Shown here in pieces: positions 9,001-12,000 of a DNA stretch of 38,725 nt. Origin of the DNA: a virus (taxonomy: Duplodnaviria > Heunggongvirae > Uroviricota > Caudoviricetes); the IMG/VR virus record IMGVR_UViG_646311924_000013; one strand, written 5' to 3'. The stretch's first letter is position 1, and every line of letters starts with the position of its first letter. The position numbers are program-made.

Positions 9001-12000
9001 GTGAATCCCCCTGTGCGGAGGGGCAATCAGCAACCAGGTATATGGGGTAATCGCGGATTCAGGTGCTGGTACTGAATTCACCGGGAGGCACCCGGCACCA
9101 TGCAAGAAAAAGAATGTGCATGCAAACATGCCCCTCTCCGGAGGGGCTTTTTTATGGGTAAAAAAATGCCCGAATGGGTTCGGGCAATAGCATGAGATAC
9201 TGATATTGTTGTGTTGTTATCGTGTGGATTTTAACCAGGGTTTATCAGGCTGCGCAACTGCGTGGCCTTTTTTCATTTCTTGGGCTGTAGTCCCCGTGTG
9301 TCATTCAGGCTTCCGGACTACAGCCCACTCCATATCTGATTTAATACACTATCCCGGCCGGGAGGAATAATGACATTTAAACATTATGATGTTGTCAGGG
9401 CGGCGTCGCCGTCAGACCTTGCTGATGCACTTGCGCAAAAAATTCGTGAAGGATGGCAACCATATGGTGGGCCGTTTTCTTCGTATACGGATGATGGCGC
9501 AGCACTTATTCAGGCGATTGTCGCAGAAGGTGATGTGAGCACACCTGTTGTGGTGAAGCCGACAGGTGGAGAAGGTGCAGTAATCAGCGCCACCAGCGAC
9601 CCCGGGTATTACTTTGTTGTGGTTCTGGCAGGGCAGTCAAACAGCATGGCATATGGTGAAGGCCTTCCGCTGCCGGAGACATATGACCGTCCGGACCCGC
9701 GCATTAAGCAGCTGGCGCGTCGCAGTACGGTGACACCGGGCGGTGTCGCCTGTAAATATAACGACATCATTCCGGCGGACCATTGTCTGCATGATGTGCA
9801 GGACATGAGCCGCCTTAACCATCCGAAAGCGGACCTGTCAAAGGGGCAGTACGGAACCGTGGGGCAGGGGCTGCATATCGCCAAAAAACTGCTGCCGTTT
9901 ATACCGGCGAATGCGGGCATTCTGCTGGTTCCGTGCTGTCGTGGTGGTTCAGCGTTCACCACCGGAGCTGATGGCACATACAGTGACGCGAGTGGTGCCT
10001 CGGAGAATTCAACCCGCTGGGGTGTGGACAAGCCGCTGTATAAGGACCTTATCGGTCGAACAAAAGCAGCACTGAAGAAGAATCCGAAAAATGTGCTGTT
10101 TGCCGTGGTGTGGATGCAGGGGGAATTTGATTTTGGCGGTACGCCGGCAAATCACGCAGCACAGTTTGGTGCGCAGGTTGATAAATTCCGTGCAGACCTG
10201 GCGGATATGGCAGGTCAGTGCGTCGGTGGCTCTGCTGACGGTGTTCCCTGGATATGCGGGGACACGACGTATTTCTGGAAGCAGAAGAACGAATCCTCGT
10301 ACCAGACGGTGTACGGCAGCTACAAAAACAAAACGGAAAAGAATATCCATTTCGTACCGTTCATGACGGATGAGAATGGGGTGAATGTGCCGACGAACAA
10401 ACCGGAAGAAGACCCGGACATTCCGGGTATCGGATATTACGGTTCGAAATGGCGTGACAGCTCAGCCACCTGGACGTCACAGGACAGGGCGAGCCATTTC
10501 AGCGCCTGGGCACGCCGTGGGATTATTTCCGACCGTCTGGCAACGGCGATTTTGCGCCATGCGGGAAGAGTGGCGCTAAACGCGGGGGCATCATCGACAG
10601 TATCAGAGGTGCGCCCGTCATCGCCTTCCGGTGCAGAAGCCACAGGCGTCACAACACTGCTCTCTTACCTTGCCAGCGAGTCAGAGGGAAGCCTGAAAGT
10701 ACAGGGATGGTCAGCCAGTGGCGGCAGGGCAGAAGTGGTCAGCGATGCGGAGGGAACCGGAGGTAAGGCAGTGAAGCTGACCAAGGAAGCCGGTAAAAGC
10801 AGCTGGGTGCTGGAGTACGCCGCGGGCAACGGTGCGGCTCTGTTACAGAAAGGGGGGCAGATTCGCTGCCGCTTTAAGGTTTCGGGAGCGCTGGCTGCGA
10901 ACCAGTATGTTATGGCGTTTTACTGGCCGGTATCTTCACTGCCACAGGGCGTTGCCCTGACCGGAGACGGGGGGAATAACCTGCTGGCAGCGTTCTACAT
11001 CCAGACAGATGCAAAAGACCTGAATGTGATGTACCACAATGCGAAAGTGGCGACAAACAACCTGAAACTGGGAACCTTTGGCGCATTTGATAACGAATGG
11101 CATACGCTGGCCTTCCGCTTTGCCGGGAATAACAGCCTTCAGGTGACGCCGGTTATTGATGGTCAGGATGGCACACCGTTCACGCTGACGCAGTCACCGG
11201 TCAGTGCATTTGCGGCGGATAAACTGCATGTGACAGACATTACCAAAGGTGCGACTTACCCGGTGCTGATTGACAGCATTGCGGTGGAAGTGAACAACAC
11301 AGACACTGCGGCATGATAAAAAAAACCGCCAGCGACAGGAATGGACGCTGGCGGTGGTAATACCTATGGAGAAAAAATAAAGGAACGATACTTTCGTGCT
11401 CTGGTTTTTTAAATGAAAACAGTTCTTATTGTCAACAATAACGGAAAGAAATTATGACATTTCTGAACCAGTTAATGCTGTACTTCTGTACGGTGGTCTG
11501 TGTGCTGTATCTCCTTTCGGGTGGGTACAGGGCCATGCGTGACTTCTGGCGCAGACAGATTGACAAAAGGGCCGCTGAGAAAATCAGCGCCAGTCAGTCA
11601 GCCGGAAGCAAACCCGAAGAGCCGCTCATTTAGCGGCAACTTTCTTAATCACATCTTTCGACGAGAAAATCCCATGTCAGAAATTACATCCCTGGTCACT
11701 GCTGAGGCAGTGAAGGAAGTCCTGCGCTCTGAAGAAGTCCTGAGTGCACTGAAACAAAAACTTCGCCATAACCTGGAAGCGCGTCTTGATGCAGAAGTGG
11801 ATGCCATTCTGGATGAACTGCTGGGCGCACCGGCAGCTCCGGAGCCGGAAGGTATCGCGGGTGAGGGGAGTGCTTCAGATAGCGGTGACCCCACACCGGA
11901 CAGCGACATGATGATGTAAGCATGCGTCAGGGACCATCGGTGTGTGCCGGTGGTCTTTTTTATTGTTGTGAGCTTCCGGATTGCGGGAGACGGGGTATGA

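Follow-up and report, generated by a model that had tools for sequence, protein, structure and literature searches.

The minus strand of positions 9222..9160 in the window (the whole stretch of viral DNA analysed, 38 725 nt, IMG/VR record IMGVR_UViG_646311924_000013) is confirmed by its sequence as a copy of AgvB, a prophage RNA already known in Escherichia coli O157:H7. We hold with high confidence that the locus encodes, within a prophage, an 'anti-sRNA' (RNA sponge) that binds Hfq and is directed at GcvB. AgvB is thus no new feature, and it had been correctly interpreted in an earlier note made from the sequence alone. The elements of the gene are as follows, all on the minus strand.

9160..9222, minus strand: AgvB sRNA, 62-63 nt, CGAUAACAACACAACAAUAUCAGUAUCUCAUGCUAUUGCCCGAACCCAUUCGGGCAUUUUUUU (Rfam RF02702, Sakai identity, fold)
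9268..9273, minus strand: A6 tract, about -46 to -51, upstream of the -35 (sequence reading)
9252..9257, minus strand: -35-like hexamer TTGCGC, with an 18-nt spacer to the -10 (sequence, conservation)
9228..9233, minus strand: -10 hexamer TAAAAT of the agvB promoter (sequence reading, conservation)
9207..9220, minus strand: seed, AgvB nt 3-16, AUAACAACACAACA (co-folding with GcvB)
9189..9201, minus strand: small internal hairpin, nt 22-34, AGUAU-CUC-AUGCU (MFE, centroid and Rfam consensus structures)
9160..9186, minus strand: intrinsic terminator, 8-bp stem and loop CCCA (9186..9167) followed by U7 (9166..9160) (terminator scan, fold)

An Rfam search of the window matched the AgvB model (RF02702; gathering score 56 bits) on the minus strand at 96.5 bits (E 1.2e-17) over model positions 1-62 of 62, and the RNA equals the model consensus at every one of these positions, so that the minus-strand sRNA of about 62 nt proposed in the earlier note is borne out. 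The window contains the 62-mer a single time, against zero occurrences expected by chance. From the -35 through the terminator stem there are no mismatches to AgvB1 (in Sp10) or AgvB2 (in Sp17) of strain Sakai, whose loci have the same Rfam score as the copy here; the guess that this was AgvB therefore holds, promoter included. The sole difference from the two Sakai alleles is the tail, T7 here and T6 there, and T7 is found in nine of the 73 AgvB copies in IMG/VR contigs. AsxR (RF02703) had no match at its gathering score in the window, and the 5' module is not of the AsxR type, UUAUUAAAACG. A 151-nt query found matches in 651 of 5426 complete E. coli genomes, a count that includes sister alleles of AgvB and so is not AgvB-specific. 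None of the 25 RefSeq records listed has an annotation under the agvB-type match.

A protein-coding reading of 9160-9257 was rejected, there being only short ORFs with neither family support nor annotation. The ORF scan gave three:

9206-9370, plus strand: short ORF, 54 aa, TTG start
9100-9195, plus strand: short ORF, 31 aa
9063-9161, plus strand: short ORF, 32 aa, overlapping 9160-9257 by 2 nt

The 54-aa ORF, the only one tested, had no Pfam match.

The promoter call is supported by its conservation and by the transcription start determined in published work. The -10 hexamer lies 5 nt upstream of that start; it is kept in all seven aligned family members and in 120 of the 121 copies counted, namely 119 of 120 IMG/VR contigs and a contig labelled Xanthomonas that is treated below. 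TTGCGC, which we infer to be the -35 of agvB, is invariant in the seven-member alignment, where the adjacent positions vary, and is present in 117 of the 121 copies. The A-run upstream of it is likewise conserved across the AgvB family alignment, and the A6 tract is possibly an UP element. Both the TAAAAT (9233..9228) and the upstream A-tract that the earlier note had described were recovered, the A6 at 9273..9268 lying just outside the interval 9160-9257 that the note had assigned to the element. A generic sigma-70 scan called no promoter sites in 8600-9600; it misses the agvB promoter because the -35 fits the consensus at only three of six positions. By 5' RLM-RACE the AgvB 5' end is CGAUAAC (PMC4104026), which puts the start at C9222 in the window; the earlier placement of the element stands, and its exact 5' end, taken at ACACG, moves 3 nt downstream.

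The RNA has a single-stranded CA-rich 5' end (within the minus-strand stretch ...ACACGAUAACAACACAACAAUAUC), a small hairpin, a GC-rich terminator hairpin and a U-tail. Its MFE of -13.7 kcal/mol (z = -3.8) beats all 200 dinucleotide shuffles. The sequence of the internal hairpin is invariant across the family alignment. The terminator stem, GCCCGAA/UUCGGGC, has 7 G-C-rich pairs, or 8 counting the flanking U-A, and the terminator scan sets T7 at 9166..9160, so the 7-bp GC hairpin and U7 of the earlier note are also in place. The U-tail is presumed to be the site for the Hfq proximal face; its role in Hfq-mediated annealing is taken from the literature. Together the small hairpin and the intrinsic terminator make up the conserved 3' domain of about 42 nt that is common to AgvB, AsxR and EcOnc03, present here according to alignment, fold and terminator scan. 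In the family alignment the promoter and this 3' domain are invariant and the 5' module is swapped.

The 5' module here carries the seed, which is unpaired in the MFE structure, single-stranded also in published enzymatic probing, and invariant in all 73 AgvB-type copies. The consensus of GcvB R1 targets, CACAACA, occupies AgvB nt 10-16 (9213..9207), and its presence in the 5' variable domain is the published criterion for AgvB (PMC4104026).

The partner, GcvB, was confirmed in an EHEC genome (RF00022, 199 bits), and 5425 of 5426 complete E. coli genomes have it. In the co-fold, nt 3-16 of AgvB form 14 consecutive predicted pairs (12 of them Watson-Crick) with the R1 seed of GcvB, nt 71-84, which supports the complementarity to R1 that the earlier note saw in the CA-rich end. 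The duplex prediction suggested there gives a co-fold ddG of -16.2 kcal/mol, compared with -8.1 +/- 2.8 for shuffled 5' ends; one of 300 shuffled versions matched it. The EHEC dppA leader pairs with GcvB nt 61-92, overlapping the segment used by AgvB. RNAduplex on full-length AgvB and GcvB (-41.5 kcal/mol, all-against-all) neglects intramolecular structure and was dropped, co-folding being preferred.

We also scanned every 21-mer of the window for duplex energy against GcvB nt 56-95. GC-rich 21-mers at about 34578, 18007 and 22727 outscore the AgvB seed, and raw duplex energy alone is therefore no specific detector and not evidence of uniqueness. Part of the duplex signal is due to composition, since 34 of 2000 composition-keeping shuffles of the 21-nt 5' end reached the observed energy.

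The mechanism that we propose follows the published one. In a lysogen, agvB would rely on a promoter of its own, reading the strand not used by the phage late operon, and would yield a product of about 60 nt. The CA-rich 5' end (AUAACAACACAACA, with its CACAACA) would mimic the GU-seed target sites found in mRNAs under GcvB control, dppA among them, and would pair with the R1 seed of GcvB, a core-genome sRNA. Hfq, binding AgvB through ARN repeats and through the terminator with its U-tail, would accelerate annealing. The resulting duplex would cover R1 with GcvB not being destroyed, and occlusion of R1 would partially free mRNAs for amino-acid and peptide transport from GcvB repression.

Most of these steps have been observed in O157:H7 with the identical sequence, for which expression, transcription start, Hfq binding and duplex formation have all been shown. 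Sakai AgvB gives a 60-nt Northern band, is destabilised in an hfq deletion strain, binds Hfq according to CRAC, and is the most abundant unannotated Hfq-bound RNA in that strain; enzymatic probing and Hfq-dependent annealing kinetics have also been published. An RNA of the same sequence as here binds and sequesters GcvB and derepresses dppA (Tree et al. 2014; PMC4104026), blocking GcvB without appreciably lowering its level, and RNase E CLASH recovered 82 unique AgvB-GcvB hybrids in vivo (PMC5286369); the GcvB-target mimicry put forward in the earlier note is thus a published anti-GcvB mechanism of this exact sequence. Deletion of both agvB copies lowered dppA translation by 32%, a modest effect in the native host, and agvB gave a fitness gain in competition in bovine terminal rectal mucus (PMC4104026). 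From the identity of the alleles we infer that the copy in the O111-type prophage is expressed and acts like those of Sakai.

Some of the same observations fit a different main activity, in which AgvB would chiefly compete for Hfq, or regulate GU-rich mRNAs in trans as an ordinary sRNA, and not sequester GcvB stoichiometrically. Its ARN-rich 5' end would then fill the Hfq distal face, displacing mRNAs like dppA, or would pair directly elsewhere. The ARN repeats and U-tail resemble those of class II sRNAs, the rank of AgvB among unannotated Hfq-bound RNAs of Sakai is in keeping with such a role, and gel shifts show mutual displacement of AgvB and the dppA leader from Hfq, which the authors' own model permits (PMC4104026). 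We nevertheless think it unlikely as the main activity, given that AgvB left dppA unaffected when GcvB was absent, that a G1 mutation in the seed ended derepression and a compensatory change in GcvB brought it back (PMC4104026), and that AgvB-GcvB hybrids are abundant in vivo (PMC5286369). The dependence on GcvB and the compensatory G1 mutations make pairing with GcvB the main route.

The surroundings of agvB also have published counterparts. The relevant features are:

6321..7142, plus strand: antiterminator Q gene, 273 aa (Pfam PF03589, 5e-52; RefSeq annotation of identical prophages)
7717..8775, plus strand: DNA methyltransferase gene, a moron lying after Q and before the sRNA pair (Pfam PF01555, 8e-44)
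8822-8881, strand not given: tRNA remnant (Rfam and PGAP calls)
8967..9159, plus strand: STnc100-type sRNA, equivalent to Sakai EcOnc06/EcOnc27 (Rfam RF02076, 144.5 bits)
9370..11316, plus strand: NanS-p-like sialate O-acetylesterase gene, 648 aa, with DUF1737, SASA and DUF6645 (Pfam)
Start of window and 12433-13742, strand not given: IS1203 copies, the second disrupting a lysis-region gene

The agvB site falls in the 'moron' region of a lambdoid prophage, beyond the antiterminator gene Q. This matches the published architecture, in which convergent sRNA pairs occupy the moron site after Q and pR' and precede a conserved ORF (PMC4104026). The late operon runs along the plus strand, and agvB is antisense to it. 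The esterase gene is divergent from agvB and corresponds to what the published scheme calls a 'conserved hypothetical phage ORF'; its homologue is annotated in phage records as yjhS, 9-O-acetyl-N-acetylneuraminic acid deacetylase. The terminator of the STnc100-type sRNA (9130-9147 plus T6) faces that of AgvB, the two 3' ends being about 6 nt apart, and convergent pairing of an STnc100-type sRNA with the AgvB scaffold is found also in Sp10, Sp17, and Stx1 and Stx2 phages. Three plus-strand terminator-like hairpins lie at most 360 bp upstream of the esterase gene, one of which (9247-9268) overlaps the agvB -35. A 13-bp inverted repeat spans 9281-9327, and stx genes are absent here. ARAGORN called no tRNA anywhere in the window, in conflict with the Rfam and PGAP calls at 8822-8881; we read this as a chimeric tRNA remnant. 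The prophage is of an O111:H8 EHEC type, O111:H8-type genomes matching at 100%; that of O157:H7 PV15-279 is 97-98% identical and is without the IS insertions.

This arrangement might be read as the true purpose of the locus. Lying antisense to late transcription, with its terminator abutting that of the STnc100-type sRNA and with the three hairpins ahead of the esterase gene close by, agvB could serve chiefly as one of two terminators set back to back, or as a cis-antisense element that curbs read-through from pR' into the esterase and lysis genes, with the sRNA as a by-product. Such a reading we hold to be very improbable. An invariant promoter would be superfluous for a purely structural element, the seed is conserved in every AgvB-type copy while sister elements bear other seeds on the same scaffold, and the effects on GcvB and dppA were obtained in trans from plasmids, away from the prophage (PMC4104026).

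The two IS1203 insertions, one of them in the lysis region, and the chimeric tRNA raise the question of whether this copy of agvB is an inactive, silent relic in a degraded prophage. That is barely credible, as neither promoter nor RNA is damaged and both are identical to those of the functional Sakai alleles, and as agvB has its own promoter, independent of phage functions; moreover Sp17, the bearer of functional AgvB2 in Sakai, is itself IS-ridden and defective.

With a working GcvB-directed RNA as the preferred reading, there is a slight chance, which we rate as quite small, that the T7 allele, in its O111-type prophage and antisense to the late operon, is functionally not equivalent to the Sakai alleles. 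The longer U-tail might improve binding to the Hfq proximal face and speed GcvB capture; lengthening the tail to U9 in vitro raised the on-rate about 3.6-fold. The 9247-9268 hairpin and the 9281-9327 inverted repeat might couple agvB expression to late-operon read-through, and if so AgvB output would switch between lysogeny and induction.

Sakai AgvB1 and AgvB2 (EcOnc01a/b; Sp10, Sp17) share with the copy here their promoter, start region, seed, internal hairpin and terminator stem-loop, and they too are convergent with an STnc100-type sRNA and upstream of a NanS-p-like gene. Homology with Sp10 forms a block at window positions 8978-9477, which begins with the partner sRNA and reaches about 100 nt into the esterase gene. 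Upstream the prophages differ: Sp10 has a 184-aa Q, tRNAs and a TerB-like gene, and Sp17 a 207-aa Q and a membrane protein gene, in place of the 273-aa Q and methyltransferase here. The host lineages differ as well, O111:H8-type here versus O157:H7 for the Sakai alleles.

SroC, a core-genome sponge of GcvB, triggers GcvB decay, unlike AgvB. The two RNAs have no sequence relationship. According to PMC4474525, SroC, derived from the gltIJKL mRNA, is like AgvB an RNA sponge of GcvB that acts by base pairing. SroC is released by processing of a GcvB-regulon mRNA, whereas AgvB is transcribed from its own prophage gene.

AsxR (EcOnc02; RF02703), of Stx2a phages such as 933W and Sp5, has the promoter hexamers, the CGAU start, the ~42-nt 3' domain, the position and the convergent partner of AgvB, and over 2.9 kb 933W and the window's late region share about 90% identity. 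The 5' modules differ, UUAUUAAAACG in AsxR versus AACAACACAACAAUAUC in AgvB; that of Stx2a phages scores as AsxR and is not the module found here. Because of this difference the target of AsxR is not that of AgvB, and AsxR acts on FnrS, which it destabilises (PMC4104026). A third seed allele, CGAUAAAAAUGACAAUGCAA, in Stx1a phages has the promoter, scaffold and location of AgvB with a different seed that is without CACAACA. It scores 56.6 bits, barely at the AgvB gathering score, and is probably EcOnc03-like, judging from PMC4104026 rather than from a sequence comparison.

A scan of one genome per species with the conserved 3' domain gave a single match, in an 888-bp contig labelled Xanthomonas pisi that holds an AsxR-type copy and the rest of a Stx2-phage intergenic region. 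Given this content the contig is probable contamination, and we rejected a wider host range on its account.

AgvB is a textbook phage-encoded 'anti-sRNA', in which an acquired RNA rewires a core regulon, that of GcvB, governing amino-acid and peptide uptake; it helps EHEC growth at the colonisation site in cattle. An intact and identical agvB in an O111:H8-type prophage says nothing new on mechanism; what it adds is that one and the same allele, within a conserved convergent two-sRNA cassette, occurs in different lambdoid backbones.

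The feature at 9160-9257 is real: it is AgvB, a previously characterized anti-GcvB sRNA of prophages, whose mechanism has also been described. When the whole window was scanned with Rfam, minus-strand positions 9222..9161, on the strand that the earlier note had proposed, matched AgvB (RF02702, 'Anti GcvB sRNA') at 96.5 bits (gathering score 56; E = 1.2e-17). The match spans the full model, positions 1-62 of 62, and all bases equal the family consensus in the Rfam alignment. The 62-mer occurs once in the window, and so does the conserved 3′ domain. AgvB was discovered and tested in two prophages of E. 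coli O157:H7 Sakai, Sp10 and Sp17 (PMC4104026), and both loci, taken at the coordinates in Table S2 of that paper, gave AgvB matches with the same score as the window copy. A three-way alignment spanning the downstream gene's start codon to the partner sRNA showed the promoter, the RNA body and the terminator stem to be identical; the sole change in the aligned gene is the tail, T6 in AgvB1 and AgvB2 of Sakai and T7 (9160-9166) in the window. The identity that the earlier note had suggested is thus borne out by the Rfam match and the Sakai alignment. The locus and its neighbors are as follows; promoter elements and the transcribed stretch were read from the sequence.

6321-7142, plus strand: antiterminator Q (PF03589)
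7717-8775, plus strand: DNA methyltransferase (PF01555)
8822-8881, plus strand: degenerate tRNA (partial Rfam match)
8967-9159, plus strand: STnc100-type sRNA (RF02076, 144.5 bits)
To 9160, minus strand: CCACA after the -10, then the agvB transcribed stretch CGATAACAACACAACAATATCAGTATCTCATGCTATTGCCCGAACCCATTCGGGCATTTTTTT
9186..9167, minus strand: agvB terminator hairpin, 8 pairs (5 G-C) and a loop of 4, then TTTTTTT (terminator scan)
9233..9228, minus strand: agvB -10 hexamer TAAAAT, 18-nt spacer from the -35
9257..9252, minus strand: agvB -35 hexamer TTGCGC
9273..9268, minus strand: A6 run upstream of the -35, just beyond the 9160-9257 first drawn for the feature
9370-11316, plus strand: 648-aa protein with DUF1737, SASA (sialate O-acetylesterase) and DUF6645 domains (domain matches)
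Downstream of 11316, plus strand: holin, lysozyme, terminase and morphogenesis genes

A generic promoter scan did not call the agvB promoter because TTGCGC agrees with TTGACA at only three of six positions. In the fold of the 63-mer RNA, the first 21 nt are unpaired and are followed by a 5-bp hairpin and then by that of the terminator; the MFE is -13.7 kcal/mol against -5.7 ± 2.1 in 200 dinucleotide shuffles (z = -3.8), none of which was as good. Sequence, terminator scan and fold agree that the minus strand had been described accurately (-10, A-tract, CA-rich stretch, hairpin and U7).

GcvB was found in 5425 of 5426 complete E. coli genomes, and was confirmed in an EHEC genome, where it adjoins gcvA (199 bits against RF00022). 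The earlier note had suggested an in-silico duplex prediction with GcvB; when run, co-folding predicted pairing of AgvB nt 3-16 (AUAACAACACAACA) with GcvB nt 71-84 (UGUUGUGUUGUUGU), part of its GU-rich R1 region, through 14 consecutive pairs, 12 of them Watson-Crick, keeping both AgvB hairpins and with a ddG of -16.2 kcal/mol. Shuffling the 21-nt 5′ end while retaining the 3′ domain gave a mean ddG of -8.1 ± 2.8, and the observed value was reached once in 300. In that EHEC genome the dppA leader is predicted to pair with GcvB nt 61-92, overlapping the AgvB site, and shares with AgvB the CA-rich word AACAACA, so the description as a target mimic holds computationally. Plain duplex energy was matched by 34 of 2000 composition-keeping shuffles of the 5′ end, and raw duplex energy is lower at other GC-rich 21-mers in the window than at the AgvB seed; the case for a specific site is made by published experiments on the identical sequence and by the seed being accessible, at the start of a short transcript that ends in a terminator.

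AgvB gave a 60-nt Northern band with a primary 5′ end, was the top Hfq CRAC signal among unannotated RNAs, and lost its stability without Hfq (PMC4104026). It relieves GcvB repression of dppA::gfp with no drop in GcvB level; seed mutation abolished this derepression and compensatory mutations restored it, and double agvB deletion lowered dppA translation by 32% and left the strain less competitive in bovine terminal rectal mucus (PMC4104026). In view of these genetics, any action of AgvB by competing for Hfq, or on RNAs besides GcvB, would be secondary. RNase E CLASH recovered 82 unique AgvB-GcvB hybrids (PMC5286369). The seed is single-stranded by enzymatic probing, Hfq accelerates AgvB-GcvB annealing in dependence on the U-tail, and U-tail length alters the rate of this Hfq-mediated annealing in vitro (bioRxiv 10.1101/2021.04.25.441314).

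We aligned the window with Sakai Sp10, one non-Stx phage, one Stx1a phage and three Stx2a phages, whose copies Rfam calls AsxR. Both promoter hexamers, the CGAU start and the 3′ domain are invariant, and the 14-21 nt between CGAU and 3′ domain are swapped wholesale. A structural or cis-antisense role for the element would leave this invariant promoter and these modular seeds unexplained, and we consider it very improbable. Among 120 IMG/VR contigs with the conserved 3′ domain there were only three seed alleles: AgvB (73, the seed invariant in all; tails T6 in 62, T7 in nine and T5 in one), AsxR (19) and CGATAAAAATGACAATGCAA (27, e.g. contigs L013 and L031). This third allele (CGAUAAAAAUGACAAUGCAA) also adjoins stx1AB on the AgvB/AsxR scaffold of Stx1a phage Stx1_14744 (L008, 2568-2627), where its 56.6 bits barely clear the Rfam threshold for AgvB although it has no CACAACA motif; automated annotation would therefore mislabel it as AgvB. 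A 151-nt query, which also catches the sister alleles, matched 651 of 5426 complete E. coli genomes at a median of three places per genome, with no RefSeq annotation under the match in the 25 records listed. Scanning one genome per bacterial species for the 3′ domain gave a sole match, an 888-bp contig of 'Xanthomonas pisi DSM 18956' (L012, NZ_JPLE01000080.1) outside the IMG/VR set. It holds one more AsxR-type copy and the remainder of the Stx2-phage intergenic region, and is probably E. coli or phage contamination of a draft assembly rather than evidence for this host.

The STnc100-type sRNA is on one side of agvB and the esterase gene on the other: agvB converges with the sRNA, about 6 nt separating the two 3′ ends, and diverges from the esterase gene. 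Tree et al. describe the same layout, in which two convergent sRNAs sit downstream of a Q-antiterminated pR′, flanked by a moron and a conserved ORF (PMC4104026). In Sakai, the counterpart of this STnc100-type sRNA is the EcOnc06/EcOnc27 class; the window copy scores below the approximately 207 bits of Stx2-phage copies because about 14 internal nt are absent, and in its place RefSeq has a 48-aa pseudogene on the opposite strand (8986-9129). The tRNA remnant (flanks 8665-8929; Rfam 37 bits, model positions 7-64), labeled tRNA-Met by PGAP, was not found by ARAGORN. By BLAST against phage 933W, its 5′ part resembles the first phage tRNA (ileZ-like, anticodon CAT) and its 3′ flank the end of the third, and from these matches it is therefore read as a deletion chimera.

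Three terminator-like hairpins (8906-8923, 9130-9147 and 9247-9268) lie on the late-operon strand within 360 bp before the esterase gene, and six terminator-like sites were found in the region against 1.3 expected. The last hairpin (9 pairs, then TTTTTCATTT) overlaps the agvB -35; in Stx phage copies a G-T wobble in its stem becomes G-C. Between the agvB promoter and the 648-aa gene start is a perfect 13-bp inverted repeat (9281-9293 / 9315-9327, TGGGCTGTAGTCC / GGACTACAGCCCA, arms 21 nt apart), one arm of which is invariant in the family alignment; it could be a putative late-transcript RNA hairpin or a putative protein-binding site. The plus-strand leader 9240-9372 folds with z = -4.5.

O111:H8-type EHEC prophages match the window at 100% over 7 kb, IS1203 insertion included, while an O157:H7 relative has only 97-98% identity. 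Only the sRNA cassette plus the beginning of the esterase gene (window 8978-9477) is homologous to Sp10, and the upstream morons differ. The late region of Stx2 phage 933W is about 90% identical, but has a different seed module and approximately 1.3 kb with stx2AB that is missing from the window. Two IS1203/IS629 copies (IS3 family; 1 to about 930 and 12433-13742) carry ALIL frameshift pseudoknot matches (1-72 and 12768-12884); the prophage is probably defective for lysis because the second copy breaks a gene between those for holin and lysozyme. That the window's agvB is itself an inactive relic is unlikely, since its sequence is undamaged and the same as in functional alleles, and Sp17 is likewise a degraded prophage with a functional copy.

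AgvB of the window thus differs from the reference alleles only in one extra terminator-tail T and in its prophage backbone and serotype. The first-stage reader, working from sequence alone, had made the correct call.
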